In this document: one piece after another, positions 17,457 through 46,042 of the stretch
Layout: each line of letters opens with the position of its first letter
Position numbering within the stretch: position 1 is the first letter of the stretch
Source: an uncultured Desulfobacter sp.
GTDB lineage: Bacteria > Desulfobacterota > Desulfobacteria > Desulfobacterales > Desulfobacteraceae
Reading direction: 5' to 3'
Assembly (NCBI GenBank): GCA_963665095.1
Contig: OY762069.1
Location: forward strand, 640,001-704,000
Length of the DNA: 64,000 nucleotides
Position numbers and translations under genes: made by a program
Notes under the pieces: model-generated
Told to the model about the DNA's origin: nothing
The model's database searches: none
The model's input: the letters and a program-made list of their open reading frames with translations, nothing else

Positions 17457-18713
17457 ATGAAAACACTTGAACAGATTAACGATAAAATTGCGGCCGGGCA
17501 GGCGGTTGTGCTCACGGCCGATGAAATTATAGATTATGTGGACCGCAAAGGCCTTGATCAGGCTGCAAAAGAGGTTGATGTTGTTACCACTGCCACCTTT
17601 GGCCCCATGTGCTCGTCCGGATGTTTTTTAAACTTCGGCCACTCAAAACCCAAAATGCGGATGACCGAAGTCTGGGTGGATGATGTCATGGCCTATGCCG
17701 GGATTGCTGCCGTCGACGCCTATCTTGGCGCCACCCAGCTCAGACATAACGATCCTGCAAACATGTACCATCCCGGTGATTTTCTATACGGTGGCGGCCA
17801 TGTGATCGAAAAACTGGTGGCCGGTGAAGAGCTCCAGCTGTTTGCCCTGTCATACGGCACAGATGAGTATCCTCTCAAAGAACTGAGAACCTATTTCACC
17901 ATGGATGATCTCAACCAGGCCATCATGACCAACCCGAGGAACTGCTACCAGAACTATAATGTGGCGATCAACTGTTCTGACAGGCCCATATATACCTATC
18001 TGGGTGAACTGCGACCGAACATGAAAAACCTCACCTATTGTTCTGCGGGTCAGTTGTCTCCTCTGCTTAATGATCCTCTATATAGAACCATTGGTATCGG
18101 CACCAGCGTCTGGCTTGCAGGTGCCCGTGGACATGTGTACGCCCAGGGGACCCAGCATGCTTCGGATTGTCTGCGCGGCGACAATGATGTCCCCATGGAG
18201 GGAGCCGGCACCCTGGCTTTAACCGGCAACATGAAGGAGATGGACAGCGAATTTGTCCGCGGAGTCAGCCTGAAAGGATATGGGGTATCCCTGGCCTTAG
18301 GTGTGGGAATCCCGATCCCCATACTGGACAAAGAGGTCCTTAAATACTGCACGGTGCGTGACAGCGAAATCTTTGCCGAAGTCATTGACTATGCGTCCGC
18401 ATATCCCGAGCGTCGTGGGGATATTGTAGCCAGAGTCTCCTACGCAGATCTTAGAGGGGAAGAGTCCCAGATAGAAGAGGGCCTGGAATTTATACAATCT
18501 TTAAATGTGGACATTGACCTGACCATGAACAGCCTGTCATGGGACAAGGACAAATGCACCGGATGCGGCAATTGCGTGCCGCATTGTCCTACTGGCGCGC
18601 TTCATGTCGTAAATAACAGAACAAGGGAAATAGATTTCCAGCGGGATAAATGCATTGAATGCCGCAGCTGTATCAGAAACTGTCCTTTCGGGGCCTGCTC
18701 CTGTCTTTTCTGA
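17457..18713 (+). CDS. DUF39 homocysteine biosynthesis protein (aspartate-semialdehyde sulfurtransferase type) fused to a partial NIL and 2x[4Fe-4S] ferredoxin
   Basis: VDVVTTATFGPMCSSG, NPRNCYQNY, AGQLSPLLNDP, LGVGIPIP; C-terminal CTGCGNCVPHCP and CIECRSCIRNCP. Confidence 0.85.
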   Translation: MKTLEQINDKIAAGQAVVLTADEIIDYVDRKGLDQAAKEVDVVTTATFGPMCSSGCFLNFGHSKPKMRMTEVWVDDVMAYAGIAAVDAYLGATQLRHNDPANMYHPGDFLYGGGHVIEKLVAGEELQLFALSYGTDEYPLKELRTYFTMDDLNQAIMTNPRNCYQNYNVAINCSDRPIYTYLGELRPNMKNLTYCSAGQLSPLLNDPLYRTIGIGTSVWLAGARGHVYAQGTQHASDCLRGDNDVPMEGAGTLALTGNMKEMDSEFVRGVSLKGYGVSLALGVGIPIPILDKEVLKYCTVRDSEIFAEVIDYASAYPERRGDIVARVSYADLRGEESQIEEGLEFIQSLNVDIDLTMNSLSWDKDKCTGCGNCVPHCPTGALHVVNNRTREIDFQRDKCIECRSCIRNCPFGACSCLF

Positions 18714-24455: not shown

Positions 24456-24920
24456 ATGTGGAGAATCAAACTCACTTTTGAAGTGATAACAGCTTTTGTT
24501 CATGCCAACTTAATTTTGTTGTTTACTAAAAACAAAATTCAAGTGCCTGCTGTAACAGAATCGACGTATTCTTATACTCAGGAAATTCAAAAATGGGTGA
24601 AATTTACCGATTTTCTTTTAAAATTCATGATTTACACACGCAAACACAATTGTTTTTTCAGGTCATTTGTTCGTATGAAAATATTAAGAAAAAGGAATGT
24701 ACCGGTAAAACTGAATATTGGTCTTCGAAATCTTGACGCGGATATTCATACACGTGGGCATTGCTGGCTGACGCTCGAAGACAGTCTGTTTTATGAAAAC
24801 ATGCTGTCTGAAACGCATCTGCTCCCTGATAAATTGTATCCTTTTTTTTTAGGTTCTTATAACGATGTGGTGTATTGGGTGAATGGGAAAGATGGAGATG
24901 ATTTAGTGAGATCGTCATAA
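24456..24920 (+). CDS. Lasso peptide biosynthesis B2-type leader peptidase (transglutaminase-like)
   Basis: NCFFRS...VKLNIG...GHCWL matches the CLxRS / GV / AHAW Cys-His pattern of B2 proteases; adjacent to an RRE gene. Confidence 0.82.
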   Translation: MWRIKLTFEVITAFVHANLILLFTKNKIQVPAVTESTYSYTQEIQKWVKFTDFLLKFMIYTRKHNCFFRSFVRMKILRKRNVPVKLNIGLRNLDADIHTRGHCWLTLEDSLFYENMLSETHLLPDKLYPFFLGSYNDVVYWVNGKDGDDLVRSS

Positions 24921-24972
24921 CGTAAACAGTAAAAATAAAAATTCTTGGAATTTGAAAGGTATAGAACGTAAC

Positions 24973-25260
24973 ATGCCAAGTCAAATTAACGATCAGGATA
25001 AATTCAAGCCAGTTGATGAAGTAACCTGGCGGGATATCAATGATGAAGTTGTTGCATTAAAGCTGGTTTCAGGGGAATATTATTCTTTTAATGAAATTGG
25101 AAGGCTTTCGTGGCTCTCTTTGACAGAAGGCAAACAGGTTTCACAAATTGTTGAAGATATCCTTAACAATTATGAAACAACCCCGGATCAGGCTGAAAAA
25201 GACTTGAATGAATTTATCCATGGATTGATAGAAAATAATTTATTGATCAAGGATGAATAA
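24973..25260 (+). CDS. PqqD-family RiPP recognition element (lasso B1-like)
   Basis: VTWRDINDEVVAL..GEYYSFNEIGRLSWLSL...AEKDLNEFIHGLIENNLL is the typical PqqD pattern; about 95 aa. Confidence 0.92.
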   Translation: MPSQINDQDKFKPVDEVTWRDINDEVVALKLVSGEYYSFNEIGRLSWLSLTEGKQVSQIVEDILNNYETTPDQAEKDLNEFIHGLIENNLLIKDE

Positions 25261-25299
25261 TTAGAATAAGTAAAAACTATGAAAGGAGGTGGGAAAAGG

Positions 25300-25383
25300 A
25301 TGAAAAAAGAATATGTTGCCCCAATGTTTTTCAAACATGCACCGCTGGAATCAGTAAGTACTACTTATTATTACTACTACTAA
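25300..25383 (+). CDS. Putative RiPP precursor peptide MKKEYVAPMFFKHAPLESVSTTYYYYY (27 aa; not in the ORF track)
   Basis: Strong SD AAGGAGGT at 25283-25290; YxxP leader motif; directly downstream of the RRE gene; ends in five Tyr then TAA (an alternative in-frame ATG lies at 25279). Confidence 0.88.
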   Translation: MKKEYVAPMFFKHAPLESVSTTYYYYY

Positions 25384-25488
25384 GTGGTGATTGGGTTATC
25401 TGTTGGATGAGACAGACAATCCGTGAGTCGGCTTTGTCTATTAATTTTAGGATGGACCCGATTTAATTTCAAACATGCAGTTCAAAGG

Positions 25489-25529
25489 ATATTGGCCAAG
25501 CGCCACTCTAAGTGGTGTTTGGCCAATAT
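25489..25529 (+). terminator. 19-bp stem-loop downstream of the precursor (attenuator or mRNA-stabilising hairpin)
   Basis: atattggccaagcgccact-cta-agtggtgtttggccaatat (two G-U pairs) followed by ttt. Confidence 0.7.
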
Positions 25530-25541
25530 TTTGGGAAAATT

Positions 25542-26564
25542 ATGGGATACGCACTCGGCGATATAACTTTTGATATTAAAGGATCTGAGACGCTGGTTAA
25601 AAAAGCGGTCTGCATCATGTTTGAGCTTGTCAAATGTCCTTTGAGTGATCCGGAACTTTCATTCCTGGTTCACGAGATTGAAGGGAATAATAGAGCCGCG
25701 CTTGAAAAAATTTTACCTCAATGGAGCGTGGAGAAAGCCCTTTCTCAGCCCCCATCGAATGACGTGGTAATGTACTTTGGCAATTCGTCAGACTTATGTA
25801 CAGAGGTTCTATCCGTCGCCGTTGATGACCTGTCTGTTTTTTGTTGTTATTACAGGCCGACTGATAAGGTTATTCACTATGTCCTTTACAAAAAGAACCC
25901 CGGTGCTGTGCTTTTATCTGTATCTTCAGTGATTGTGCCCACACTTTCAGAGTTGTTTTTTCAACACGCTAAAATGTTATTTCATGCTGCATCTGTTTAT
26001 ATCCCGGAGGCTGACACCGGGGTAATGATCGCTGCAGACAGTGGCGGTGGAAAAACAACCACGACCCTATCTTTATTGAGAAACGGGGCCAAAATGATCT
26101 GTGATGATTTAACCCTCGTCGGACCGGGACAAAATCAGACTTTGACCATGTCAGGGTTTCCCGAAAAAATGAATTTAACTGAAGATACCATATGTTTTTT
26201 CCCGGAATTGGCAGCACTGAGAAATGAGATTGCCCCTAATTTCCATTCAAAAAAATATCCAGTATTAATCAGCGATGTTTATGGAAACAACTGCATGGCT
26301 AAAAGTTGCAGGCTCGATCTTATTTACTTTATTTCCCGTAAGGATGACACGCCTTCTGCTACCCCCATGAATTTGTCTGAAGCATTTGGGAAGCTGTTAA
26401 AAGCCTGTACATTTGCCATAGAGCAGAACCCCACTAAGGAAAGGGCATCAAAATTGTTTTCAATTCTTGGGTCAGCTAAAATTTTTAAGTTGAATTCCGG
26501 AACCGATCCGGACCTGCTTGGCAGATGGATTATGGATAATTGTCAAAAACATTTGGCATCCTGA
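25542..26564 (+). CDS. HPr-kinase-like P-loop kinase (RiPP tailoring type)
   Basis: LFHAASV...MIAADSGGGKTT...MICDDL, the signature of HprK-related kinases. Confidence 0.82.
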   Translation: MGYALGDITFDIKGSETLVKKAVCIMFELVKCPLSDPELSFLVHEIEGNNRAALEKILPQWSVEKALSQPPSNDVVMYFGNSSDLCTEVLSVAVDDLSVFCCYYRPTDKVIHYVLYKKNPGAVLLSVSSVIVPTLSELFFQHAKMLFHAASVYIPEADTGVMIAADSGGGKTTTTLSLLRNGAKMICDDLTLVGPGQNQTLTMSGFPEKMNLTEDTICFFPELAALRNEIAPNFHSKKYPVLISDVYGNNCMAKSCRLDLIYFISRKDDTPSATPMNLSEAFGKLLKACTFAIEQNPTKERASKLFSILGSAKIFKLNSGTDPDLLGRWIMDNCQKHLAS

Positions 26565-26589
26565 TTTGCCAGATGACATCATAACGCGT

Positions 26590-28395
26590 ATGAATGAAAC
26601 TCGGGACAATAATAAATCACATAAAATAAGTGGGTTGGCTATGCTTGGTGACGCCGGTATCAGAACCATATCTATCCGGCGTACTTTAAAGTTTTTGTGG
26701 TATTACACAACACCTTACCTGACGGATCTGGCAAAAACATTTTTAACCTCCCTGCCGTTGATCTGCATGGGATGGACTATCCCCTGGATTTTTAAGAAAG
26801 TAACGGAACTTTTTGTACAGAATACCCCGTTAAAATCCATCATCCTGTGGCTGGTTATCGGGCTGTTAGCTGTCAGTCTCAAAAGTCTTCTCGAGATAAT
26901 TACCCAATACATCATGACCATTCTGCATGTTAAATTAAGTAATGATATCCGCAATGATATATATGAATATATTCAGAAAAATCCTTTAAGTTTTCATGTT
27001 CAGAATCGAAGCGGAGAGTTATCTAGTCTGATAACCAACGATACTTTTTCAGCAGCGGCCGGTGTCCTTGAAACCTATTCAACATTATGGCAGAATCCTG
27101 CAACCATTCTTTGCCTGATTGCTGTGATGCTTTATTTCAATCCTATCCTATCTGTTTTTGCCATCATTTCGGTCCCGATTATCAGTCTGTTAGTGGCAAA
27201 AGCAGGAAAAAAAGCACTTCAGGCAGAAAGAAACTATCTCGACAGGCAGAGCAAAATTCTTGGATGGATGGTTGAGTCTCTGGTAAATATCAAGCAGGTC
27301 AAATCATTCAACCTTGAAGACGAACGTAAGAAAAAAGTTGTTTCATACGGGGAAGATCTGATTCTGTTTCGAAGAAAAGCCCTGATGTCAAAGCTGATCG
27401 TCTCCCCTATCACCGAAATTGCCAGCAGCCTGACATTAATTTTAATGGGAGTTGTCGCATATCATCAGTTAGCCAACGGCTACACGACCTCCGGTGATAT
27501 TGTTGGCTGCCTTACTGCAGCCATCAGTCTAAAAAAACCCATTAAATCATTGTCTACTTCTTACGTTATTCTGCAAAAATCCATCGCGGCCATTGGAAGA
27601 ATCTCAGGGGTCGTTGGTACAATCACCGAGGTGGATGACGGCCGTGATTTTAATGAGTTGGTAAATGAAATTTCTTTCAAAAATATCGGCTATTCCTATG
27701 ACGGCCGCCATACTATTTTAAACCAGGTATCCTTTAAGATCCGTAAAGGTGAGAAAGTTGCCATCATAGGAAAATCAGGAGCAGGGAAAACCACATTGAT
27801 AGATTTACTCATTGGTTTTTTTCCCTGTCAGAAAGGTGAAATTGAAATCAACCAGATAAATCTGAAACAGATCCAACCAGCCTCCTGGCGAAGACATATC
27901 GGTGTTGTCACCCAGGAGCCCTATCTTTTTGATACAAGCATTGAAGAAAATATACGGGTGGGAGATCCGTCTGCCTCAGATGATCGCATCATGGACGTGA
28001 TCCGTCAGGCTGGCTGCAGCGAAATCATATCCAGACAACCCTATGGTATGCATACCAAGGTCGGGGAAAGAGGATTGCGGCTTTCAGGTGGTGAGCGCAA
28101 ACGTATTGCCCTTGCGCGCGCCCTGATACGTCCCATATCTGTCTTAATCCTTGATGAGGCCACAGGTGAGCTGGATCATGAAACTGAAAAAGGTATCCTT
28201 GAAACCATTGCCAGATTGTCATCAGATCTCATTATTATTCATGTTTCCCACAGAGACAGCGTACTTGATTATTGTGACCGGGCATTGATGATTAACCAGG
28301 GCAGGGTTCAGGAGGTGAGCATTGAGGCGTGCCGGGATAAGATCAAAACGCTGCAGAATGGGGATGTCGAGAAAAAAAGGGCTTCATTCAGGTGA
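26590..28395 (+). CDS. ABC transporter, fused permease/ATPase (exporter); start codon uncertain
   Basis: TM domain; GKSGAGKTT, LSGGERKRIALARA, LILDEAT; no N-terminal C39 peptidase domain. Confidence 0.93.
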   Translation: MNETRDNNKSHKISGLAMLGDAGIRTISIRRTLKFLWYYTTPYLTDLAKTFLTSLPLICMGWTIPWIFKKVTELFVQNTPLKSIILWLVIGLLAVSLKSLLEIITQYIMTILHVKLSNDIRNDIYEYIQKNPLSFHVQNRSGELSSLITNDTFSAAAGVLETYSTLWQNPATILCLIAVMLYFNPILSVFAIISVPIISLLVAKAGKKALQAERNYLDRQSKILGWMVESLVNIKQVKSFNLEDERKKKVVSYGEDLILFRRKALMSKLIVSPITEIASSLTLILMGVVAYHQLANGYTTSGDIVGCLTAAISLKKPIKSLSTSYVILQKSIAAIGRISGVVGTITEVDDGRDFNELVNEISFKNIGYSYDGRHTILNQVSFKIRKGEKVAIIGKSGAGKTTLIDLLIGFFPCQKGEIEINQINLKQIQPASWRRHIGVVTQEPYLFDTSIEENIRVGDPSASDDRIMDVIRQAGCSEIISRQPYGMHTKVGERGLRLSGGERKRIALARALIRPISVLILDEATGELDHETEKGILETIARLSSDLIIIHVSHRDSVLDYCDRALMINQGRVQEVSIEACRDKIKTLQNGDVEKKRASFR

Positions 28396-29222
28396 TGACT
28401 GCAACCATTTTAAATAGCAAAAAACAAAATCTGGCCTGTTTTTTTGACCGCCCGTCTAACTGCCGTGTTCTTCAGGAGGACCGGAATAAGGTGCTTTTAA
28501 AAACTGAGGATCCGGAAAATGCGCTTTTTATAAAAATTTTTAAATATCCGGAACTGATCGCTTCAAGATTTCAATATGGCAGATTTTCAGGTGGTAACCT
28601 TGAGCTTAAAAACTGTTTCAGACTGGCCCGGAAAGGTATTCGAACACCTGAGCCCATTGGCAGTGCCGTAAAACGAAACCGGCTTGGTTTTCCTGTCCAG
28701 TCCCTCTATGCGGCCCGGTGGGTTAAGGATTCATTTCCATTGCCGGTTTATATGGACCGGGGCTTGGCAGGCCGGCTTTCAAGTGGGTTTTCAATGGAAC
28801 GGTTCGTTGAAAATCTTGGGGTTTTTGTAGGGAAAATCAATCGTCAGGGTATATATTCCACAGACTTTAATGTAAGAAATTTTCTTGTAACACAGAGGAC
28901 AGAGTCTGAGAAAAATGGATCTGAAGAAATTTTTCTTGTGGACTATGAACGACTTTTTTTCAGAAGAGAAGTAAAATTGAAAGGTGCGCTTGTCGGTTTG
29001 TCCCATATAGGGGCACACCTGGTTTATGTGGATCCGGAGTTGATTTTTCCTTTCTGCACCGGTTTTGTCCGTCAATATTCGATTGGAATACCCTGTAAGG
29101 CTTTCGCTGATCTGGTAATGACGGCCTCTTTGAAAAAAAAGGAGCAATGGGATAGGGGCATTGCGAAAAAATTTGATCGGATAGCACGGCATATGTCCCA
29201 GAAAAGTTCTTCCAAAGGATAA
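28392..29222 (+). CDS. Kdo/WaaP (InaA)-family protein-kinase-like kinase
   Basis: LFIKIF, E..N...L...GIRTPEPIG, GIYSTDFNVRNFLV, FLVDYE. Confidence 0.78.
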   Translation: MMTATILNSKKQNLACFFDRPSNCRVLQEDRNKVLLKTEDPENALFIKIFKYPELIASRFQYGRFSGGNLELKNCFRLARKGIRTPEPIGSAVKRNRLGFPVQSLYAARWVKDSFPLPVYMDRGLAGRLSSGFSMERFVENLGVFVGKINRQGIYSTDFNVRNFLVTQRTESEKNGSEEIFLVDYERLFFRREVKLKGALVGLSHIGAHLVYVDPELIFPFCTGFVRQYSIGIPCKAFADLVMTASLKKKEQWDRGIAKKFDRIARHMSQKSSSKG

Positions 29223-29228
29223 ATATTA

Positions 29229-30314
29229 TTGATTTCAAAACCATCTCCCTTTATTGATGCTGAGTCCGGCAAGAAACTGTTAAGCAAACTGCTGCTCAGT
29301 CAGATGAATGCAGAGTCCCAGGATTTACGGCCGGTGCTCGGCCATCTGTCAGCGCACAGGTGGAGTAACTGGGTAACTGCCCACGGGTTCTCAAGCCTTT
29401 TTTTATATGCATGCAGTGACAGGGATATGATCCCTGAGTCCGTGCGGTTACAGTGGGAAAAGCTGCAGATCCAGCTCATGTTTAAAAATATTGGATTTTT
29501 TAAGACCGCGGACATGTTATTTGGGGAGCTTGAGAATGCTGGGATCAAAGCGGTTGCCATGCGGGGGGTGACACTTTTATATAAAATATATGCGGATCCC
29601 TGCATAAGGGTGATGGGAGATGTTGATATACTGATAAATCCACAGGATCATGAGATGCTGCGAACTTATCTGGCTGAAAGAAATTTCATCCCTAAAGCCA
29701 TTCATCGCAGCCAGTATGTCTACAAATTTGGCACCAGCAATGTTGAAATCCACTGGTCTTTAATTACGGCAAGGCGATACCGGGAAAGGATGGATACATC
29801 TGAGTTTATCTCAACCAGGCAACCTTTAGAGGTTAAGGATGGCCGTATTTTCTGCCTTACACCCGAAAATGAGTTGATTGGTCTGATAACCCATGCTGTT
29901 ATCCACCATGAACTTACCATCCTTAAACAGCTCTTTGATATTGCCCTTTATCTGCCCATGCCGGGTATCGACTGGCATTATATCGCAACTTGGTGTCGTA
30001 ACGCCCAGATGACCCGGATGTTTGTTTTTACCATCCAGTTGACAGGCCGCCTTTTTGAACTGGACGTGTCAAATATCCTTGGCCATTTTTACATCCAGCT
30101 TCCCAAATCCTGGGGAAAAATTATTGACGCATATATTGACGCTTTTTTTACAGTGGATATGTCGCAACTGTTTGCCCGAAAAAGAAATGCCATATACATG
30201 GCTGAAGGCCCATTAAAAAAGCTTGAGCAGTTTTTCACAATGTTCAGCATGTCCGAGGCAAAGGATATTTATAAAAGATATTTTGAAATTGATCACAAAG
30301 AGATAACAAATTAA
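29229..30314 (+). CDS. Nucleotidyltransferase family protein (NTP_transf_5 type, as found in some lasso clusters)
   Basis: MRGVTL...Y..PCIRVMGDVDILI, VEIHW, HAVIHH, LFDIA. Confidence 0.85.
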   Translation: MISKPSPFIDAESGKKLLSKLLLSQMNAESQDLRPVLGHLSAHRWSNWVTAHGFSSLFLYACSDRDMIPESVRLQWEKLQIQLMFKNIGFFKTADMLFGELENAGIKAVAMRGVTLLYKIYADPCIRVMGDVDILINPQDHEMLRTYLAERNFIPKAIHRSQYVYKFGTSNVEIHWSLITARRYRERMDTSEFISTRQPLEVKDGRIFCLTPENELIGLITHAVIHHELTILKQLFDIALYLPMPGIDWHYIATWCRNAQMTRMFVFTIQLTGRLFELDVSNILGHFYIQLPKSWGKIIDAYIDAFFTVDMSQLFARKRNAIYMAEGPLKKLEQFFTMFSMSEAKDIYKRYFEIDHKEITN

Positions 30315-30329
30315 TGTCACCGTTGAATT

Positions 30330-32495
30330 ATGCAAATGAAAAGCATTGAAACAAAAACAAGTAAATTTATGAATCAGGCCATTGAGATCCATCCTGATAA
30401 TCCGGATTGGAAAAACAAAGGGAACAGGGTGCGTGTTCTGTTTATCGCAGTGAACATTACAGGGTACTACAGCCTTCCGGTAAGAATTCATACCCTGATG
30501 CTCAGCCGTGATCCACAGTTCATGGAAAATTTTGATTTCAGATTTATTGAATTTGAGAATATAGAACCCGTTGATCGTCTGTTCCGGGTGACCAACGGAC
30601 TTTGTCCTGATATCATAGGTTTTTCTGTCAATATCTGGAACCGGGATATCTGTTTTCAACTTGCTGAGCGGCTGAAAACTGCCAACCCCCGTATTAAATG
30701 CATTGCGGGCGGCCAGGAGATGACCAATTCAACCGTTGATTATCTGAGCAGCCATCCTGAGATCGATTACATTATTGACGGGGAAGGAGAGATCCCACTG
30801 ACCCAGTTTTTGGCAAACTGGGATGCCGATCAACTTGATATACATGCGCCTGAAACGGTTTCAGGGCTTCATTACAGAAAAAACGGCACCCATGCTTTTA
30901 CAGGTCCTGCTCAGCTCGTGGACAGTCTCGACGATATCCCGTCCCCTATATTGTCCGGCCTGATTAACCCTGAAATCAGATACAGATTAGGCACCATGAT
31001 TGAAGGAACACGGGGGTGTCCGTTTAAATGCAGTTTTTGTTTTGAAGGCGGAGAAAAAAGAAAAGTAAGAACCGCATCCCTGGCGCGTATCAAAGAAGAA
31101 ATTGAATTTATGGCATCAAGAGGTGTGAAGTTTTTTCACCTTATGGATCCCATTTTATGCAACAGCAGCCCGGCCAGACTGAAAGAACTCGCCCGGTTTT
31201 TTGACAAAATGAATGCGCAGTATAAAGATATCGTGGTCTCTGTGGAAGCCTATGCCCACCATATTACCCTTGAAGTGGCCCAGTGCCTGAAAAACTTTCG
31301 CCTGATTGATATTGGGCTTCAAACGGTGAACCCTGAGACGGCAAAAGCCATTCACCGGCCGTGGCAGCCTGAAAAATTTAAAGCAGGGCTGGATTTTTTA
31401 AGGCAGGTCAAAGCACGGTTTACCATTTATTTAATCTGCGGGCTTCCCCACGAAACACTTGAGTCATTCATTGAAGGCATGTGTGTGGTCATCAATGAAA
31501 ATCCCTCCCAGCTTTTTTTTAATGAATTACTGCTGCTCAATGGCACCGAGCTTCGCAGAAGAGCGGTGGAGTATGGATACGTTTATGATGAGGCGCCGCC
31601 TTATCAGGTACACGCCAATCTGTGGATGAATAAAACCCAGCTCAGACTTGCCAACCTGATCGCAAAAGATGTTGAAAAGCGATATAACTTCTCTGCCAGA
31701 GCGGTTCATGCCAATTCTCCATGGGTTCCCGCAATTGCGGAAAGGTTTGACCATGCTGTTAAGATGGTTCCGGGAACCAGCTGCTCACAGAACTGTCCCG
31801 GATGCAGTCGGTCTGAAAATCAGACGGCCACGTTTTTCAATGATGCTGTCCTGTCACAATTAAACAGCACGGCAAACCGGGATATTGAAATTATCCTTGG
31901 TGACAGGTTTGAAAAAAATGACCTTCTCAAACTTATTGGCCAGCTGGTGCTGGCGGGCAGTGCCCGAATTAAGCTGGCAGCTCCGGTTCAGATTTTTGCC
32001 GATAGAGAGTGGCTCGAATTACTTGTAAACAGAGGTGTCTGGCATTTTAAGACCTTTATATCCGTACCGGATGATGCCGAATCCACAGATCTGCCAGCCA
32101 TGGTGGAAAATTTCATGAAGCAGCTGGAACATTTCAGTACACCTGTTGATTTAAGGGGGTATGCTTCTATATCACCACATATCGAACTGGTGGTTCTGTA
32201 CCACGATAATATGGATCAAAGTATGTTTTCACAGATTGCTTCCCTGGCGGCACGGACATACATATCTGTTATTACGGTGCCGTCCGATATCATGGACAGC
32301 AAAGGCCAAAGCTGGGAAGACGCGCTTTCGGACATGATCCGGATGGGTATGGACAAAGACACCTGGATTAAACTGCCACGGGGGATATGGCAGACCTATT
32401 TTTCAGATGAGCAGGTGGATACATCTGTTATCACTTCATTGGAAGAACTGGAAATGGTAAGTGCTGAGATTAATCAGCCCCCCTGCTTTGAATAA
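30330..32495 (+). CDS. Cobalamin-binding radical SAM protein with a C-terminal extension bearing a second CxxxCxxC
   Basis: B12 domain (DIIGFSVNIWN, AGGQE, DGEGE), RGCPFKCSFC, IGLQT, LICGLPHET; later CSQNCPGC. Confidence 0.9.
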   Translation: MQMKSIETKTSKFMNQAIEIHPDNPDWKNKGNRVRVLFIAVNITGYYSLPVRIHTLMLSRDPQFMENFDFRFIEFENIEPVDRLFRVTNGLCPDIIGFSVNIWNRDICFQLAERLKTANPRIKCIAGGQEMTNSTVDYLSSHPEIDYIIDGEGEIPLTQFLANWDADQLDIHAPETVSGLHYRKNGTHAFTGPAQLVDSLDDIPSPILSGLINPEIRYRLGTMIEGTRGCPFKCSFCFEGGEKRKVRTASLARIKEEIEFMASRGVKFFHLMDPILCNSSPARLKELARFFDKMNAQYKDIVVSVEAYAHHITLEVAQCLKNFRLIDIGLQTVNPETAKAIHRPWQPEKFKAGLDFLRQVKARFTIYLICGLPHETLESFIEGMCVVINENPSQLFFNELLLLNGTELRRRAVEYGYVYDEAPPYQVHANLWMNKTQLRLANLIAKDVEKRYNFSARAVHANSPWVPAIAERFDHAVKMVPGTSCSQNCPGCSRSENQTATFFNDAVLSQLNSTANRDIEIILGDRFEKNDLLKLIGQLVLAGSARIKLAAPVQIFADREWLELLVNRGVWHFKTFISVPDDAESTDLPAMVENFMKQLEHFSTPVDLRGYASISPHIELVVLYHDNMDQSMFSQIASLAARTYISVITVPSDIMDSKGQSWEDALSDMIRMGMDKDTWIKLPRGIWQTYFSDEQVDTSVITSLEELEMVSAEINQPPCFE

Positions 32496-32527
32496 ATGTA
32501 AATTTTTTGCATGAGAAAGGAATAGTT

Positions 32528-33511
32528 TTGGCAAATATTCTGATAACCAATCATTGTGTGAGGAAATGTACCTTTTGTTTTGCCCGATCCCGAATCGGTC
32601 AGTCGGCGGATACCCAAAAGGCAAGCCATATGTCTTTGGAGAACATACATAAGGTTATGGATTTCCTGGATAAGACAGATGATGATCAGCTCCGGCTTCT
32701 TGGCGGGGAGCCCACACTGCACCCGGAATTCATACGTATTGTTCAAGAGGGGATAGAGAGAAATTTTTATGTCCATATTTTTTCAAACTGCATGATGCCC
32801 AATCGTGTTGTTGATTTTCTTAAAACCGTGCCGGACAATAAATTATCCATTCTTGCAAACGTGTCTCCCCAGGAAAGCGATACCCCGGAACAAAAAAAAC
32901 GGGTGGAACGTACACTTGAACAACTGGGAAAAAAAATAACGGTCGGCATTACAGTGACAGCACCGGAGTTTGAGTATCAATTTCTCTTTGACCTGATAAA
33001 TAAATATAATTTGCGGCGCCGGATCCGGGTCGGCATTGCCCAGCCCATTGTCGGCATCTCAAATGAATTTCTGCCGCCCTCAAAGTACCGGGAAACAGGC
33101 AAGGCACTTGTAAAGATGGCCCTTGACAGCTATGAGCGCGACATGCTTATCGGCTTTGACTGCGGTCTTACCCAGTGTATGTTTTCTGAAATGGAAATTG
33201 GTATTCTGGCAAAGAAAAGCGAAGGATTCAGTATGGTTTGCGACCCCATTATTGATATTGGACCTGAGCTTGATGTCTGGCATTGTTTTCCTTTGTGTGA
33301 AGTTCTCAACACGAAACTGGATATGTTCAGAACCAGAAATCATATTGCAAAATTTTATAATAGCCGGTTAATGCCTTATAAAACATTTGGGTGCATGCCT
33401 GAATGCCGATCATGCGTTCATCTTCACCAGGGAACTTGTACCGGAGGGTGTATAGCCCATGCCATCAACTCGTTTAATCAGAAACCACCAGCAAGAATTG
33501 ATGCCGGTTAA
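32528..33511 (+). CDS. Radical SAM protein with a SPASM/twitch domain
   Basis: TNHCVRKCTFCFA, LLGGEPTLHP; C-terminal C...VWHCFP...CRSC...CTGGC; TTG start after SD 'aaagga'. Confidence 0.9.
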   Translation: MANILITNHCVRKCTFCFARSRIGQSADTQKASHMSLENIHKVMDFLDKTDDDQLRLLGGEPTLHPEFIRIVQEGIERNFYVHIFSNCMMPNRVVDFLKTVPDNKLSILANVSPQESDTPEQKKRVERTLEQLGKKITVGITVTAPEFEYQFLFDLINKYNLRRRIRVGIAQPIVGISNEFLPPSKYRETGKALVKMALDSYERDMLIGFDCGLTQCMFSEMEIGILAKKSEGFSMVCDPIIDIGPELDVWHCFPLCEVLNTKLDMFRTRNHIAKFYNSRLMPYKTFGCMPECRSCVHLHQGTCTGGCIAHAINSFNQKPPARIDAG

Positions 33512-33556: not shown

Positions 33557-35662
33557 TTAACATAGCTGTATGGTTCTGGTATACAAACGCCGTCTGAATC
33601 TGCTTGGCCTGCTGTCCTTTAGAATACATGACCACGGCAGCACAAGACGGCTGAGATATTTTTTTAAAAAAAACGGTTCAATAAGTTTCAGACCTTGTTC
33701 CGGAACTTTGCCCTGAACGGTTTTCTGCACACAGAACAGGAAATGTGCCAGAGCAGCCTCGTGTTTCCCTGGCCGTGCATGCTTTTGTATCCATTCCCAA
33801 TCTATCTTTTCGCTGTCTTTTTCAAGTATCTGGCGGATATCCACCATTCTGAGCATCCTGTCAAAATGATGTTCCCATATTGCATGAAGGCAGGAAGACA
33901 AGAAAAGATGGTTCACATTCAGACAGTTAATTTCAGTGCCTTGAAGGGAAATCTTTACCGCAGAGTCAAGACAGTTTTTAAACCTAAAAAGAGACGCCTG
34001 GTTTCCGGGCAACATGGGATAGGCATCCCAGTGAATTTCCACTGTTATGCCATTTTTTTGAAATGGCAGCTCTCCTTTGCCCATCCAGTAATCCCTTGTG
34101 CCGAATGGTATTGGTTTATACCCGTTCGCAGTTAAAAGAGATTCGATTTCCGGGATGCTTTGGGTATGGCAGACAATATCTATATCCCGACTGTGCCGCT
34201 GCCAGGGATGGGGATAATAGTTCGAGGCGAATCCCGGGCCCCTGAGGAATAAAAAATCGTGTTGCTGCTCTGTCAGCAGACAATGAACATGAACCGTCTC
34301 TTTACAAAGCTTCACATAACGATTCTTTGCATCGGACATAATTTTTTCAGCATCTACCCATAAAGGAATAGACTGCCCAGCTCTGGATTCTGCCATCCAT
34401 TTGGCGGCAAAGGGTTCCAGCCTGTGATACGTTACCAGATCCCAGATTCTGTGGAAAACAGCAGGGGTGTCCATGTTCACGGCAGGCATTGATTCTTCGG
34501 TTTCAGATGATCCCAGAGAAAAGTCAAGCATATGGTGAAACCATTGAACAGTATCCATGGAATCCATTTTTGCTGATGCGCTGTTACTGGACGGGTGGCC
34601 TGGTTTTTGGTTGTGCTTTTTTTTTGTGGCTGTAAAGGAGAAACCAAATCTGCCTTTGGCTGCCTGACTGGCCAGCCACTCACCTAACTTCACAGGATCG
34701 TTGCCTGTATTGAGTCTATAGATGCTGCACTTTTCTATCAGCCCCCACAGAATTTCCATGCTTTTATCATTTTTTTTTGCCTCATGGGCAAATGTATGAC
34801 CTTTCATCAGAACGGGCAGGCTTTCATGGAGTTCAAGTCTGTTTAAACTGGGGCCTTTTTTTGTGATCCGTGGGATGAGCAGTGCTTTTACAATCCCCTG
34901 GCCGGCCATGCCGTCCTTTTGAAAAATCTGGATCGGGTCCACAGGCGTTTTATAATCCCCTGATCGCTCTTTTTTCAGTTTTATAAAGTCAAGCTCAGGA
35001 AAGAATTCAATGGTTTTCTGTGTCAGGTTCACCTGTTTTGCAATGCCCTCAACAATAATGCCACGTTCTGACACGGACAGGGTAACCAGATCATCAGAAA
35101 TAAAGTGAAATCCTTCACGGGTCAAGGAAATCGTTGTGGACGTTTTGCCACCGCCGCTGTCTGCAATGATCAAAATCGCATCCCCTGCCGGGGATACAAC
35201 ACAACCGGCATGTAGCAGGGCTTTCCCTTGAATTAAGAGTAACTCTCTGAGCGCTGGAATCAGGACTGTGTTAAAGAGTAACGGGCTTTTTCCTGTTTCT
35301 TCGGGCACTTCAGTCACAACCAAAAGATCTGTATACGGCGCCAGTGAAACAGCAAACGCGCTGAGCTCAGCGCCCTTTAAAATAACAACAAAGCCATATT
35401 CTTTATTGTATTCGATATAGGGGTCTTCACCAGGGTCCATTTTCAAATAAATATGTTGCACCCATTCCGGCATTGCGCTGATAAACGCATTGCCTTTTTC
35501 CAAGGTCATTTTGATATCAATTCCCCGGTCTGTCTCCGGGATACGATTTAAAATGAACATCTTGTTAACAGGCCCTGTAAGTATTTCCGGAGGCGAGATG
35601 AAACGCAAGTTCAGGCCGGCCCAGCTATAGCAGAAAATGTCACTTATATTTTTAGATTCCAT
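33557..35662 (-). CDS. Fusion of an HPr-kinase-like domain and a nucleotidyltransferase (NTP_transf_5) domain
   Basis: N-half LLHAGCV...IIADSGGGKTS...ISDDL; C-half LRGPGF...YPHPWQRHSRDIDI, VEIHW, CLHAIWEH, MVDI. Confidence 0.85.
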   Translation of the reverse strand: MESKNISDIFCYSWAGLNLRFISPPEILTGPVNKMFILNRIPETDRGIDIKMTLEKGNAFISAMPEWVQHIYLKMDPGEDPYIEYNKEYGFVVILKGAELSAFAVSLAPYTDLLVVTEVPEETGKSPLLFNTVLIPALRELLLIQGKALLHAGCVVSPAGDAILIIADSGGGKTSTTISLTREGFHFISDDLVTLSVSERGIIVEGIAKQVNLTQKTIEFFPELDFIKLKKERSGDYKTPVDPIQIFQKDGMAGQGIVKALLIPRITKKGPSLNRLELHESLPVLMKGHTFAHEAKKNDKSMEILWGLIEKCSIYRLNTGNDPVKLGEWLASQAAKGRFGFSFTATKKKHNQKPGHPSSNSASAKMDSMDTVQWFHHMLDFSLGSSETEESMPAVNMDTPAVFHRIWDLVTYHRLEPFAAKWMAESRAGQSIPLWVDAEKIMSDAKNRYVKLCKETVHVHCLLTEQQHDFLFLRGPGFASNYYPHPWQRHSRDIDIVCHTQSIPEIESLLTANGYKPIPFGTRDYWMGKGELPFQKNGITVEIHWDAYPMLPGNQASLFRFKNCLDSAVKISLQGTEINCLNVNHLFLSSCLHAIWEHHFDRMLRMVDIRQILEKDSEKIDWEWIQKHARPGKHEAALAHFLFCVQKTVQGKVPEQGLKLIEPFFLKKYLSRLVLPWSCILKDSRPSRFRRRLYTRTIQLC

Positions 35663-35679
35663 TATAATATTCCATGGCG

Positions 35680-37572
35680 TTAAAAATAGGTTTCCAGCCA
35701 TATGGCAATGGATATCAGACCAATAAAAAGATCCCTGTCCATTGGTACGCCGCATCGGTATAAGGTGTACATTTGCTGAATCCCGGCAGGATCAAATAGT
35801 CCGGAATCCGCTAATGTGTCAGAAAAAAGTTTGGACTCAATGAATTGTGCACTATCTTCCTGAATCCACTGGGCATACGGAACCGTTCCCCCGAAACCTA
35901 TTTTGGTACATTTCAATGTTGTGTCAGGCAACCTGTCCGCCATGGCTTTTTTAAATATATTTTTTGATATTGGCTGGTGCAGGTTGTCCCCTATTTTTAA
36001 CCTGGCGGGGATTCTTGCGGCCAGTTCAACCATGTTAACATCAAGAAATGGGGAGCGTATTTCAACGCCATGGGCCATTCCCATCCGGTCGTTTATTTCT
36101 GAAAAACTGTATTGACTGACGCAGTTCAGGTGCTGGGCAAACAACCCGTCGAAAAGATTATCAGCACCGCTGTCCAGGTATGCGCTGGCACAAATGTCAG
36201 ACGGCGTGTTCTCTTGGCAGATTTCCAGCATAGCGTCAGTATATATTTTTTTTTGAATGTCCAGGTGATTGTATCGAAGGGCGGGGAAAGCCCGTTCCGG
36301 ATGACACCCGGCGCGCTTCCCTATAATTTCAAGTGCAAATTTTTCATCTTTTGTAAGGCCCTTTTCGGGGAGTGCCAGGGCGCCTTTGGCATTCGTCCAT
36401 TTCCCAAGATAATGATCCCAAAGATGCATCAGTGCATGGTCATTGTACCCTCCGAACAACTCGTCTCCCCCTGCACCGCAAAATGCCACTTTAACACTTT
36501 TCCCTATTTCCTGTGACAGCAGGTAGGCATCCATGGGAACAGGGGTGGCAATGGGTTCCCCATGATGACGGATTACCTCTTTCATTACAGAAAAATTGTC
36601 AGACCGGATGTTATATTCAAAATGCCTTGTCTGGTATCTGTCTGCTATCTGTCTTGCAGAAAGGGTTTCCTGGACATTTGCCGGGGTCTCTTCCTGTGCG
36701 CTGATACGAAAAGTTGGAAAGTCTTTGAGCGCTCTGCTCATGGAGGCCACAACCGCGCTGGAGTCAATGCCGCCGGATAACAGCGCGCCAACCGGGGTGT
36801 CAGACCGGCACATAAGAGAAACAGTCTGATCAAAACAGTTTCTGATCTCTTCAATGCACTCTTGTTCATCAGAAAGCCGGCTTGACGGGTCAAAGGTGCA
36901 GGACCAGTATTGGGTCAATTCAGCACGGTCATATGAAATTTCAATATAGTGGGCCGGAGGAAGTTTTTTGATATCCTTGAAAGCAGTTTTCGGCGCGATG
37001 GGATGCATAAAAGACATTGCCAGATTAATCCCCACAGGATCAATTCGTCTCGGAACTTCCGGGCATGAAAGAATCGCTGGAATTTCAGAGGCAAAAATAA
37101 ATTTATGGCTGTCTTCAAAATAATAAAGGGGTTTTTCTCCCATTCTGTCCCGGGCAATGAACAGTTTGCGGGTCTTCTGGTCCCAAATGGCAAATGCATA
37201 CATACCTCTGAGTAACGAGAGACATTGAGCCCCGGTTCGTTTATACAGCAGTAAGACAACTTCTGTATCACTTTGGGTGGCAAAGGACTCTCCCTGCCGG
37301 ATAAGCTGTTCCCGAAGTGAGCGAAAATTATAGATCTCTCCGTTAAAGGCGATGGTAAAACGGCCACAGGGTGAGGTCATGGGCTGATCAGAACGTGGTA
37401 CCGGATCCATAATGGCCAGACGGTTTACGCCTAATGCAATAGGGCTTTGGGTGAATGTTCCCTGGCTGTCCGGGCCCCGATGCGCTATGGCCTGAAGCAT
37501 GATTTCCAACTCTTTTTGAAGGGTGTTGCTCTCCTTGCTGTTTCTCTGAAAAATTCCCGCAATTCCGCACAT
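35680..37572 (-). CDS. Asparagine synthetase B-like glutamine amidotransferase
   Basis: MCGIAG (Ntn Cys), FNGEIYN, ARDRMGEKPLY, LLSGGIDSS, GGDELFGGY, EIRSPFLD. Confidence 0.93.
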   Translation of the reverse strand: MCGIAGIFQRNSKESNTLQKELEIMLQAIAHRGPDSQGTFTQSPIALGVNRLAIMDPVPRSDQPMTSPCGRFTIAFNGEIYNFRSLREQLIRQGESFATQSDTEVVLLLYKRTGAQCLSLLRGMYAFAIWDQKTRKLFIARDRMGEKPLYYFEDSHKFIFASEIPAILSCPEVPRRIDPVGINLAMSFMHPIAPKTAFKDIKKLPPAHYIEISYDRAELTQYWSCTFDPSSRLSDEQECIEEIRNCFDQTVSLMCRSDTPVGALLSGGIDSSAVVASMSRALKDFPTFRISAQEETPANVQETLSARQIADRYQTRHFEYNIRSDNFSVMKEVIRHHGEPIATPVPMDAYLLSQEIGKSVKVAFCGAGGDELFGGYNDHALMHLWDHYLGKWTNAKGALALPEKGLTKDEKFALEIIGKRAGCHPERAFPALRYNHLDIQKKIYTDAMLEICQENTPSDICASAYLDSGADNLFDGLFAQHLNCVSQYSFSEINDRMGMAHGVEIRSPFLDVNMVELAARIPARLKIGDNLHQPISKNIFKKAMADRLPDTTLKCTKIGFGGTVPYAQWIQEDSAQFIESKLFSDTLADSGLFDPAGIQQMYTLYRCGVPMDRDLFIGLISIAIWLETYF

Positions 37573-39937: not shown

Positions 39938-40951
39938 ATGAAGCTTGCCTGGATCTGGCCGTTTATGTTATCAGGAGTCATTCTCTGGGCGTTCTGGCGA
40001 TATGATTTTTCAGAAGCGGTTAAAGCGTATCACACGATTGATTGGCCGCTGATAGGCCTGTCCTTTATTTTTAATGTGTGCATTTTGTACTTTCGTGCAT
40101 ATAAATGGGCACTTGTTTTCAAACCCATGGCCCAAAGATTATCCCATTTCAACGGATGCCTGTCAGTCTTTGCCGGCTGCCTTGTGAATATGGTGGTACC
40201 GGCCCGGGCCGGCGGCCTGGTCCAGGCATGGATTATCGGCAGAAAGGAACATGTCAGTGTGAGTGCGGCGCTTGGCACTGTCACGCTGGTTCGGATTTTT
40301 GACAGTGCCATGCTTGTTTTTTTGGGGCTATGGGTTTTTATTTTTCTGAACATACCCAAAGCAGGAAATGACTACATTATATCAGTTATTAAAGCAGCAG
40401 GGTCGGCTGGTTTTTTTTTGGTGATTCTTGTTATTATCCTGTTCATGTTCACCCGGAACCCAAATGCCATGGACAGAATGTTGTTCTTTTTGTTTAAATT
40501 CTTGCCTGGCCGGCTTAAGCCGGGAACAACGCAGGCGGTCATTGGATTCCGGCAGGGGTTAATGGGTCTTAACTCTGTCTGGATTGTCGGTTTCAGCCTT
40601 TTGTTGAGCCTTGTTTTCTGGTTGCTTTGCGCTGTGAACGTCTATATTCTGCTCAACGCCCTTGGCCTGGAAGTGGCCGGGATAATCAGTCCGATACTGC
40701 TTCTGCTGGCACAGGCATTTTCCATGGGCATTCCGGCTCCGGCCAATGCCGGTCCCTACCATGCAGCGACGATAACGGTACTGGCTTTGTATGGAATTCC
40801 GTCTCAATCCGCATTATACGCCGCCGTGATTATGCATGGGGTCATGTTTATTTCAAATACGTTTCCCGGTCTGTTGTACCTGTGGCTGGATAAAACAGAA
40901 GTTGTTACGATGCTGAAAGGAATCAATGATGTCAGAAGAAACCTGCAGTAA
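39938..40951 (+). CDS. Lysylphosphatidylglycerol synthase TM / flippase-like membrane protein (UPF0104)
   Basis: FRAYKW, NMVVPARAG, VRIFD, PAPANAGPYH; multiple TM helices. Confidence 0.85.
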   Translation: MKLAWIWPFMLSGVILWAFWRYDFSEAVKAYHTIDWPLIGLSFIFNVCILYFRAYKWALVFKPMAQRLSHFNGCLSVFAGCLVNMVVPARAGGLVQAWIIGRKEHVSVSAALGTVTLVRIFDSAMLVFLGLWVFIFLNIPKAGNDYIISVIKAAGSAGFFLVILVIILFMFTRNPNAMDRMLFFLFKFLPGRLKPGTTQAVIGFRQGLMGLNSVWIVGFSLLLSLVFWLLCAVNVYILLNALGLEVAGIISPILLLLAQAFSMGIPAPANAGPYHAATITVLALYGIPSQSALYAAVIMHGVMFISNTFPGLLYLWLDKTEVVTMLKGINDVRRNLQ

Positions 40952-44813: not shown

Positions 44814-46042
44814 ATATCACCATTGTCGCACTGGGCTCCAGTGGCGATGTATATCCAACCCTTGCGCTGGGTATTGGTTTGCAAAAAGCGGGATGCCGGG
44901 TCTGCCTGGCTGCCAACCCTCTCTTTGAAGCCGATATCCTGAAACGCGGTATTACGTTTTTTCCCATCCGCACCTTATTAAGGCAGTCCCTGGCCAGCAG
45001 TCCCAACAGTCTGTATCCGGCCAAATCCCTTGACCCCTTGCGGTTTCTCGGTTTGAAAAAGCGTCATATCACGCCGATCATGGAAAGCATTGTCTCCGAT
45101 ATCCGCGATGCCTGCCAGGATGCGGATTTGATTCTTTATAATATGCTGGGACTTCCTGCCCATTATTTTGCACGGCAGATGGGTATCAAAGCCTGCCCCA
45201 TCTGCCTTCAGCCCCTGGGCCGGACCAAGGGGTTTCCAAGTCCTGTGATTTCATCAAGCATTCCTGTGCCTAAAATGCTGAATGCCGCAAGTTACTGGAT
45301 TGTTGAAAAATGTATGAATCTGTTTTTACGAAACAGCGGACAGCTGAAGGGCAGGTCGTCTTTCAAAGATCTCATTCAGGAGCTGTATTCAGATAATATT
45401 CCCGTGCTCCATGGCTTCAGCTCCTGTGTGCTGCCAAAACCGTCTGACTGGTCGGACAGCATGCATATTACCGGATACTGGTTTCTGGATACCCCTATGG
45501 ACTGGCAGGCGGATGAAGATCTTCTGGCATTCCTGAAAAAAGGGCCTGCCCCTGTGTGTGTGGGCTTTGGTTCCATGAATGATCCCGATATCACCACCAT
45601 TATCAAAAAGGCGGTTCAGGGTGTGCTTGAGGCCGGTCACCGGGCGCTTCTTCTGACCGGATGGAGCGGAGAGGCGTTTAAGGACCTTAGTTGTCCGGAT
45701 CTTTACGTGGCAAAGAGCATTCCTCACTCCTGGCTTTTTCCACAGGTATCTGCCGTGGTGCATCATGGCGGTGCCGGCACCACCGCTGCAGCCATCAGAG
45801 CAGGTATTCCGTCAGTGATTATTCCCTTCTTTTTTGATCAGGGATTCTGGGCCGATCGTCTGGAAAAACTTGGCGCAGGCCCTCCGCTTCTGTCCAAAAA
45901 GACCTTAAGCCCCGGAACCATGGCATCCTGCATTAACCAGGCCCTGGATGACAGACACCTCCATGATAAACTGGACCGGCTCAGTTTTCAGGTGAACATG
46001 GAAAACGGGGTTGAGAATGCGGTCAGCCTTCTGCTGGCATAG
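44810..46042 (+). CDS. Family 1 glycosyltransferase (sterol glucosyltransferase / GT28-N type)
   Basis: GSSGDVYP, TGYWFL, VGFGSM, PHSWLFP, HHGGAGTT, PFFFDQ. Confidence 0.93.
   Translation: MNITIVALGSSGDVYPTLALGIGLQKAGCRVCLAANPLFEADILKRGITFFPIRTLLRQSLASSPNSLYPAKSLDPLRFLGLKKRHITPIMESIVSDIRDACQDADLILYNMLGLPAHYFARQMGIKACPICLQPLGRTKGFPSPVISSSIPVPKMLNAASYWIVEKCMNLFLRNSGQLKGRSSFKDLIQELYSDNIPVLHGFSSCVLPKPSDWSDSMHITGYWFLDTPMDWQADEDLLAFLKKGPAPVCVGFGSMNDPDITTIIKKAVQGVLEAGHRALLLTGWSGEAFKDLSCPDLYVAKSIPHSWLFPQVSAVVHHGGAGTTAAAIRAGIPSVIIPFFFDQGFWADRLEKLGAGPPLLSKKTLSPGTMASCINQALDDRHLHDKLDRLSFQVNMENGVENAVSLLLA

Follow-up and report, generated by a model that had tools for sequence, protein, structure and literature searches.

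A tyrosine-tailed peptide of an uncultured Desulfobacter is a putative precursor of a non-lasso RiPP class

The uncultured Desulfobacter sp. encodes a 27-residue peptide that ends in five consecutive tyrosines and is almost certainly a real and conserved RiPP precursor. Its gene lies directly behind a stand-alone RRE gene, in the 64,000-nucleotide stretch of contig OY762069.1 analysed here as a whole (the window). The peptide probably represents a non-lasso RiPP class, of which we found no description. The chemistry we infer for its product comprises Tyr cross-links, methylation, phosphorylation and amidation, and this combined reading, the best available, is held with slightly better than even confidence. 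The relevant features, in window coordinates, are as follows.

24456–24920, plus strand: lasso-type B2 cysteine leader peptidase (PF13471, 26.3 bits; cut-off 26)
24973–25260, plus strand: stand-alone RRE of the B1 type (PF05402, 51.8 bits; alternative upstream TTG start at 24952)
25283–25290, plus strand: Shine-Dalgarno sequence AAGGAGGT; similar sites also precede homologous peptides
25300–25383, plus strand: precursor peptide gene, 27 residues (MKKEYVAPMFFKHAPLESVSTTYYYYY), with a YxxPxF leader motif, HxPLESVS, then two Thr and five Tyr
25369–25377, plus strand: Tyr24-Tyr25-Tyr26, the positions +19 to +21 from the leader Tyr, conserved with very few exceptions and predicted to be modified
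25488–25530, plus strand: 20-bp hairpin after the precursor gene (-31.5 kcal/mol, z -9.7)
25512–26564, plus strand: HprK-like kinase, start uncertain (PF07475, below cut-off)
26518–28395, plus strand: MsbA-like ABC exporter (PF00664, PF00005; 11 of 20 precursor loci)
28392–29222, plus strand: Kdo/WaaP-type kinase (PF06293, 29.6 bits; 10 of 20 loci)
29229–30314, plus strand: nucleotidyltransferase, NTP_transf_5 (PF14907, 119.7 bits; DxD invariant in 16 of 16)
30330–32495, plus strand: B12-dependent radical SAM enzyme, TokK/CysS-like, with a degenerate C-terminal domain (PF02310, PF04055)
32507–33511, plus strand: radical SAM enzyme with a SPASM-like cysteine domain, the family marker (PF04055)
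33557–35755, minus strand: second HprK-like kinase fused to a second nucleotidyltransferase (PF07475, PF14907; 9 of 20 loci)
35680–37572, minus strand: glutamine-dependent amidotransferase of the AsnB type (TIGR01536, 406.8 bits; cut-off 267.1; 12 of 20 loci)

A preliminary description of this DNA had proposed a Shine-Dalgarno sequence followed by a 27-codon ORF, and both are confirmed: the ATG at 25300 stands 9 nt behind the Shine-Dalgarno sequence, and the 3′ end reads ACT ACT TAT TAT TAC TAC TAC TAA, closing at 25383. An alternative in-frame ATG at 25279 yields a 34-residue form, the one deposited by public gene callers. Public gene calls exist for this form and for five of seven homologous peptides looked up, either unnamed or as 'hypothetical protein'. 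We prefer 25300 as the probable precursor start, which the position of the Shine-Dalgarno sequence fits. That sequence is weak evidence by itself, because AAGGAGGT is found 256 times in the genome. The tyrosine ending is far rarer. Translating the 6.9-Mb genome in six frames gives 518,364 stop-delimited segments, of which ten end in three Tyr, none in four and the precursor alone in five, making it the only one with at least four. An assembly slip as the origin of the run is ruled out, since the stretch is free of indels in four of four sequencing runs; three of these are identical to the assembly and possibly its source, and the fourth carries 12 substitutions over 2201 bases, none inside the precursor ORF. 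The cluster is present in one copy in the genome.

The peptide belongs to a family that was reached through the SPASM enzyme. A word-indexed search gave 335 homologues of this protein, and a scan of genome contigs confirmed 189 relatives, of which 80 were kept. The SPASM clade that includes the window, G020 and G054 comprises 27 loci (identity at least 43%; support 99 in a quick tree), and a search for short ORFs behind homologous RRE genes, a check the preliminary description had suggested, found a poly-Tyr peptide directly after the RRE in 20 of them. Of the seven loci without one, six lie on contigs that break off upstream of the enzymes. The seventh, Desulfamplus magnetovallimortis (L035), is a true miss: it has the nucleotidyltransferase, B12 and SPASM genes and an assembly gap nearby, and no RRE, B2 or precursor was found within 10 kb. 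Two rows were dropped, L096 (a chance match within a long ORF) and L059 (a regex hit that lies on the other strand at a YPN locus). Across the 20 precursor loci, the RRE, a nucleotidyltransferase and a B12 radical SAM enzyme each occur 20 times, HprK 19 and B2 18, followed by AsnB (12), the ABC exporter (11), the Kdo kinase (10) and a third radical SAM enzyme (9); the SPASM enzyme is present in 20 of 20 by selection, the loci having been found through it. The constant partners of the peptide are the RRE, the B2 peptidase, the HprK-like kinase, the nucleotidyltransferase, the TokK-like B12 radical SAM enzyme and the SPASM enzyme. A short ribosomal precursor, divided into leader and core and clustered with an RRE and enzymes in all 20 loci, is the arrangement of an RRE-dependent RiPP.

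The reverse search, with a DNA pattern of the peptide in metagenomes, returned 24 matches, 23 of which are genuine short Tyr-tailed ORFs. An RRE lies 300–430 nt upstream in 19 of these 23; of the other four, two stand before the exporter, kinase and radical SAM genes, one sits on a short contig and one has its RRE downstream. A profile search gave 29 clusters at 50% identity with peptides of 29–59 residues, and divergent peptides ending in YYW, YYH and YYYHII adjoin more distant SPASM enzymes (L050, L042, L107). Most carriers with a name belong to Thermodesulfobacteriota; Nitrospirota and Cloacimonadota are also represented. A cultured strain of Desulfosarcina variabilis carries the locus L023. 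The distribution of the cluster is patchy: of 400 genomes from across the phylum, 3 contain the peptide pattern and none the control pattern, and full-length B12 orthologues occur in 2 of 60 relatives. The low GC content of the main operon (24456–33511, 42.6%, versus 46.2% in the convergent pair and 48.7% in the genome) is in keeping with a patchy, mobile cluster.

Several loci depart from the common plan. Tandem precursors occur at L022:3923-4125, the second with a divergent core ending in YTYYSRYW, and in L105 and L116 a precursor ending in YYYWY accompanies an RRE (and a B2 in L105), with no modifying enzymes detected within 12 kb. The third radical SAM enzyme, of about 470–500 residues with a long N-terminal extension, is found in L012, L014, L017, L020–L022, L026, L030 and L032; an unbroken end of 6–7 Tyr occurs in eight of these nine loci versus none of the 11 without the enzyme, although kin among them are not independent. 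Other accessory genes vary: DUF2079 (L012, L015, L046), a CAAX protease (L017, L020, L021), a formyltransferase (L023, L027), a second B12 radical SAM enzyme (L024, L025) and an aspartyl protease (L022), which suggest sub-families with further tailoring or membrane steps.

The leader consensus across homologues is YxxPxFxxHxPLESVS. Y5, P8 and F10, which had been mapped onto the lasso-type RRE motif, are conserved, but two companion assignments find no support: the column of A14, taken as the lasso Gly position, holds E, D, K, A, N, Q, P or V and never G, and that of T21, considered as a −2 Thr, is variable, with Thr in 7 of 20 peptides. The wider proposal of a RiPP-type precursor with a non-lasso core is supported by the conserved family and its leader. 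The core lacks Asp, Glu and Cys, as the preliminary description had noted; acidic residues after the leader are found in 0 of 20 genome-set peptides, and of the 29 profile hits one has a single Asp, at +16. Core length is only 6–14 residues across the family. No Pfam or NCBIfam model covers the precursor, the lasso_cyano model matches 2 of 19 precursors weakly (E 0.023), and Atlas look-alikes of the peptide all score below 0.9, one of them a lasso-leader cluster at 0.81, at most a lead.

The tyrosines keep a fixed register. In the 20 peptides found through the radical SAM enzyme, Tyr occupies leader-Tyr +19, +20 and +21 in 20, 19 and 19 cases, and in the profile hits it holds all three positions in 29 of 29; the metagenome set, in which the search pattern imposed the invariance of the trio, is left out of these counts. 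The register holds whether the spacer between leader and run is two or three residues, and the flanks vary (among the 29 profile hits, Tyr at +18 in 13 and at +22 in 21), so the run appears to consist of a fixed-register trio, Tyr24–26 here, and an optional extension. Run length, which the preliminary description thought could differ between strains, ranges between species from 3 to 12 Tyr. The codons also bear out the earlier suggestion of selection on Tyr over a microsatellite. The 33 peptides counted, which include the false match L059 that was left out of the 20-locus co-occurrence set, use TAC 107 times and TAT 104; neighbouring Tyr codons differ in 71 of 157 pairs, where independence would give 78.5, and such near-independent mixing speaks for selection acting on the amino acid.

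Two leader cleavage sites have to be considered. A cut after Ser20, giving the core TTYYYYY, has an even chance in our estimate, and one after Thr21, the site first proposed, giving TYYYYY, is the less favoured candidate. Unmodified, these two cores would have masses of 1035.42 and 934.37 Da, and the whole precursor one of 3355.60 Da. The candidate −2 columns in the 20 peptides are Val19 (16 Val, 4 Ala) and Ser20 (15 Ser, 4 Ala, 1 Gly), and the Thr expected at −2 of a lasso leader appears in neither. A cut after Ser20, with Val or Ala at −2, would fit the conservation at least as well as one after Thr21. In the Bsf lasso system, where a kinase and a transferase are also present, the −2 residue is Ile or Val, and the usual Tyr-17 spacing would favour Ser20 as the −2 residue, that is, a cut after Thr21 (PMC10368454).

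On the plus strand the cluster runs in the order B2, RRE, precursor, HprK-like kinase, MsbA-like exporter, Kdo/WaaP kinase, nucleotidyltransferase, B12 radical SAM and SPASM enzyme; AsnB and the kinase-nucleotidyltransferase fusion form a convergent pair on the minus strand. Alignments with homologues find the catalytic motifs intact in all cluster enzymes. In B2, which scores 26.8 against NF033537 (cut-off 33), Cys66 and His102 are invariant in 18 of 18 aligned homologues, with no conserved third triad residue in the alignment, and its profile had no match in the PDB. The best PDB relatives of the RRE are TbiB1, 9x90, TfuB1 and 9x8z. His158, the GGK-T Walker A motif and an Asp-Asp pair are invariant in 12 of 12 HprK-like kinases, the Lys, DxN and DxE motifs in 9 of 9 Kdo/WaaP-type kinases, the catalytic motifs of the fusion protein in 9 of 9, and the N-terminal (glutaminase) Cys of AsnB in 10 of 10. 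AsnB scores 248.6 against the lasso cyclase model NF033535 (cut-off 525) and is a candidate C-terminal amidase-type enzyme rather than a lasso cyclase. As to RNA elements, the hairpin at 25488–25530 is likely to be an mRNA-stabilising or processing element rather than a U-tailed terminator. The region scanned holds no terminator-like site, Rfam gave nothing near a gathering score, and a promoter scan returned 3 sites versus 5.7 expected.

Other parts of the window were considered separately. The genes at 39938–46042, encoding an LPG-synthase-type membrane protein, a single-module NRPS (C-A-T-TE) and a GT1-type glycosyltransferase, were excluded from the precursor cluster, since L011, a locus from the same genus, has other genes in that place; they form a small cluster of their own. 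At 17457–18713, a 418-residue ORF passes from what we take to be a homocysteine-biosynthesis-like region straight into a ferredoxin-like end and may carry an internal deletion.

The modification central to our reading would be made by the SPASM enzyme. It carries CxxxCxxC and SPASM-like auxiliary cysteines (predicted cluster ligands), its Atlas look-alikes include a SPASM-annotated cluster, and it matches solved structures in the N-terminal core only; in the comparison with characterised cross-linkers (triceptide, darobactin and streptide types), none of the best 25 of 62 NCBIfam families reached its cut-off (best, 42 bits). Sister enzymes (27–35% identity) share its eight auxiliary Cys in all 10 cases checked. 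Of their 56 loci, 33 encode, no more than 10 kb from the enzyme, a long protein whose C-terminus reads Y-x-Y-P-[N/S], usually YWYPN (30 loci when only YPN endings are counted); the other 23 have no Y-x-Y-P tail in the available DNA (12 of 31 among loci of at least 20 kb). Tyr stands at both places in 51 of 52 YP[N/S] tails, and Y-x-Y-P-[N/S] ends occur in 0 of 16,168 long segments of this genome. That the two branches have both the enzyme family and Tyr-x-Tyr in common suggests a cross-link that joins residues two positions apart, and Tyr-x-Tyr is the likely target of the SPASM enzyme. The target of the sister enzymes could be another motif, as Cys-rich repeats and further radical SAM enzymes, with PapB-like matches, are encoded at the YxYPN loci too. 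The tail proteins themselves, at sister loci L036–L092 except L046 (for example L047:12699-14162 and L053:14516-15007), are WD40 proteins whose Cys-rich tails end in YWYPN; four that were scanned reached no NCBIfam cut-off, and L047 also encodes a YcaO and a PapB-like radical SAM enzyme.

Cross-linking by ApyO and in the cittilins is the work of P450 enzymes and hence needs oxygen, which would be scarce for the hosts of the poly-Tyr cluster. The literature offers several precedents for the bond itself: ApyO cross-links Tyr-x-Tyr on YLY (PMC11117315), the B12 radical SAM enzyme PbsB can cross-link Tyr on YTY (PMC12257519), and the Tyr-rich core of the cittilins is cross-linked as well (10.1101/2020.05.25.114512). 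The aminopyruvatides (ApyO, ApyD) and the biphenomycin-like peptides (PbsB) share with the poly-Tyr system RRE dependence, a Tyr-x-Tyr cross-link and a B12 radical SAM enzyme. They differ in that the link is made by a P450 or the B12 enzyme and an MNIO is present, and the available passages describe no Tyr homopolymer, lasso-type leader peptidase or kinases (PMC11117315; PMC12257519). The cittilins are alike in their 27-residue precursor and short C-terminal Tyr-rich cross-linked core and differ in their P450, prolyl endopeptidase and four-residue core, with no RRE/B2 or radical SAM enzyme named in the parts available (10.1101/2020.05.25.114512).

The B12 enzyme has an invariant CxxxCxxC and Trp103 in 17 of 17 sequences, and Trp103 aligns with TokK Trp76, a residue that the TokK paper, in the passages available, gives to TokK, ThnK and CysS only (10.1101/2021.07.10.451909). 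Among solved structures it is closest to CysS and TokK, which together with the retained Trp76 equivalent makes C-methylation the better guess; the score against the ApyD model is 44 bits (cut-off 750). The sequential methylases TokK, ThnK and CysS, its best PDB matches, differ in having small-molecule substrates, and identity to them is low, with the C-terminal half unrelated. A B12 radical SAM enzyme that makes beta-methyl-Tyr is known in ApyD (PMC11117315), and PbsB is a case in which such an enzyme serves as the cross-linker instead (PMC12257519).

A pathway can be proposed from these parts. The adjacent RRE would, very probably, bind the YxxPxF leader and deliver the core to the enzymes. 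The SPASM enzyme would then, as seems likely, act on Tyr-x-Tyr, Tyr24 to Tyr26 first, and we lean slightly towards a C-C link, aryl-to-C-beta or aryl-aryl, over epimerisation. With similarly guarded confidence, the TokK/CysS-like enzyme would C-methylate the core, for example to beta-methyl-Tyr. The HprK-like kinases would, with reasonable likelihood, place a phosphate on a hydroxyl close to where the core begins, and the nucleotidyltransferases would add a nucleotide or sugar to this phosphate. AsnB would, rather likely, amidate the C-terminus, the sole carboxylate of the core and the likeliest substrate of this enzyme because the core has no acidic side chain. B2 would remove the leader after Ser20, at even chances, or after Thr21, less probably, and the ABC exporter would secrete the product. 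The Tyr-x-Tyr cross-link is, by a small excess of confidence, the best single mechanism. More tentatively, and rather doubtfully, the SPASM enzyme might move along the run and build a ladder of fused Tyr-x-Tyr rings without oxygen, its size set by the run length (3–12); this scaffold would then be methylated, phospho-nucleotidylated and amidated, and full-size WD40 proteins from many phyla would receive the same link, on their YxYPN tails, from this enzyme family.

Other explanations share much of this gene set. The same RiPP class might have a SPASM enzyme that epimerises or edits the Tyr run without cross-links, yielding a linear methylated, phosphorylated and amidated D/L peptide. Peptide epimerases use a spare Cys as hydrogen donor, and an extra one, Cys296, is invariant in 36 of 36 enzymes of the poly-Tyr clade and absent in 10 of 10 more distant ones; runs of up to 12 Tyr would also suit a processive enzyme. 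We nevertheless consider this unlikely, as the fixed three-Tyr register and the sister Y-x-Y tails point to a paired-residue reaction and no epimerase family is among the best 25 NCBIfam matches. Alternatively, the product could resemble the linear polyphosphorylated peptides (LPPs) and be tied to the envelope; as the defining chemistry, Tyr/Thr hydroxyls would be phosphorylated and receive a nucleotide or sugar, and the radical SAM enzymes would tailor the appended group. LPPs and phosphorylated lasso peptides are both marked by an HprK-like kinase paired with an NTP_transf_5 protein (PMC13381572; PMC9266682). Consistent with this, the nucleotidyltransferase is found in 20 and HprK in 19 of 20 loci, the cluster holds a Kdo/WaaP kinase and MsbA-like exporter, and glycosyltransferase, lipid A acyltransferase and DUF2079 genes adjoin several loci. 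LPP clusters reside in capsule loci (PMC13381572), and the first invariant Tyr, at leader-Tyr +19, lies at the distance of the phosphorylated Ser3 in BsfA (Tyr-17 register, PMC10368454). BsfK and LppK, however, act on Ser3 (PMC10368454; PMC13381572), and LppK rejects Tyr and Thr in its place (PMC13381572), whereas position 3 of the poly-Tyr core is Tyr (or Thr/Val) under both candidate cuts, with no conserved Ser. Moreover, the sister SPASM enzymes track Y-x-Y tails where kinases and transferases are mostly undetected, and the envelope neighbours vary by locus. Between a stand-alone HprK and a Thr ahead of the Tyr run no clean link emerged; L025 and L026 encode the kinase but lack the Thr. This envelope-tied reading is, in our estimate, quite unlikely.

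Two further readings would remove the peptide from the proposed class altogether. Attenuator leaders combine a codon-family run with strong hairpins behind it, and the ORF likewise has a one-codon-family run followed by strong hairpins. It is nonetheless very improbable that the ORF encodes a Tyr-sensing attenuator peptide or arose as a microsatellite by-product or by chance: the RRE-binding-type leader is conserved across several phyla in a fixed place behind the RRE, TAT/TAC use is near-random, no terminator-like site is present, and the genes downstream vary from locus to locus and do not serve Tyr biosynthesis. A lasso peptide with AsnB as its cyclase would account for the presence of B1, B2, an asparagine-synthetase homologue, HprK and a nucleotidyltransferase, the gene set of paeninodin/Bsf-type lassos, and for the weak lasso_cyano matches. 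The B1 RRE with its [Y/W]xxPx[L/V/I/F/A] motif (PMC13381572) and the transglutaminase-like B2, which just reaches its Pfam cut-off, are lasso traits too. Yet none of the 20 peptides has an Asp or Glu acceptor at core position 7–9, the core has only 6–14 residues, AsnB keeps its glutaminase Cys and scores as TIGR01536 and below the NF033535 cut-off, and it is missing from 8 of 20 loci within the available DNA. The lasso reading is barely credible, and the predicted product of the precursor is not a lasso.

Our preferred reading, a cross-linked non-lasso RiPP, has its closest relatives among systems with kinases. The LPP clusters share the stand-alone RRE, HprK-like kinase, NTP transferase, MsbA-like exporter and lack of a cyclase, and their YxxP leader has a His eight residues past the Tyr, as in the poly-Tyr leader. 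They differ in an SpI-type peptidase, long variable cores phosphorylated on Ser3 and an origin in Bacillota, and the core genes given in the passages available include no radical SAM enzyme (PMC13381572), whereas poly-Tyr loci have B2, a poly-Tyr core and two to four radical SAM enzymes. An SpI-type peptidase domain is absent from the ten proteins of the cluster, where B2 stands instead. The phosphorylated lasso systems, Bsf (PMC10368454) and pseudomycoidin with PsmK/PsmN (PMC9266682), share B1, B2, an HprK-like kinase, a nucleotidyltransferase and an ABC exporter, and the Ile/Val at −2 in Bsf fits one of the candidate poly-Tyr cuts; the poly-Tyr cluster differs from them in having no macrolactam acceptor, no lasso cyclase and added radical SAM enzymes. 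In the literature searched, which covers few subscription journals, no description of the poly-Tyr peptide was found, and PLESVS and YWYPN are absent from the papers listed. The passages available from the RRE-Finder, structure-based RRE, daptide and protease-review papers, and from three papers' supplements, make no mention of it. RRE-Finder reports about 300 lasso-type RREs that adjoin radical SAM enzymes and are unexplained; the poly-Tyr family may be among them, and its clusters may be listed uncommented in large RRE datasets outside the literature searched.

The family appears to define a RiPP class with a near-homopolymer core, made mostly by sulfate reducers and their relatives, bacteria whose natural products have received little study. 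It would place the lasso leader/B1/B2 module in the service of a non-lasso product, a module that the available passages of a recent review give only for lasso peptides (PMC10885120). The 27-residue peptide offers a minimal substrate for an uncharacterised radical SAM family of more than 300 homologues and for a TokK-like B12 enzyme, and also for the NTP_transf_5 proteins that stand beside RiPP kinases (PsmN, BsfN, LppN). If the proposed chemistry is true, the SPASM enzyme would be an oxygen-independent, iterative Tyr-Tyr cross-linker useful for peptide macrocyclisation, and one new radical reaction would be common to tiny peptides and large proteins.
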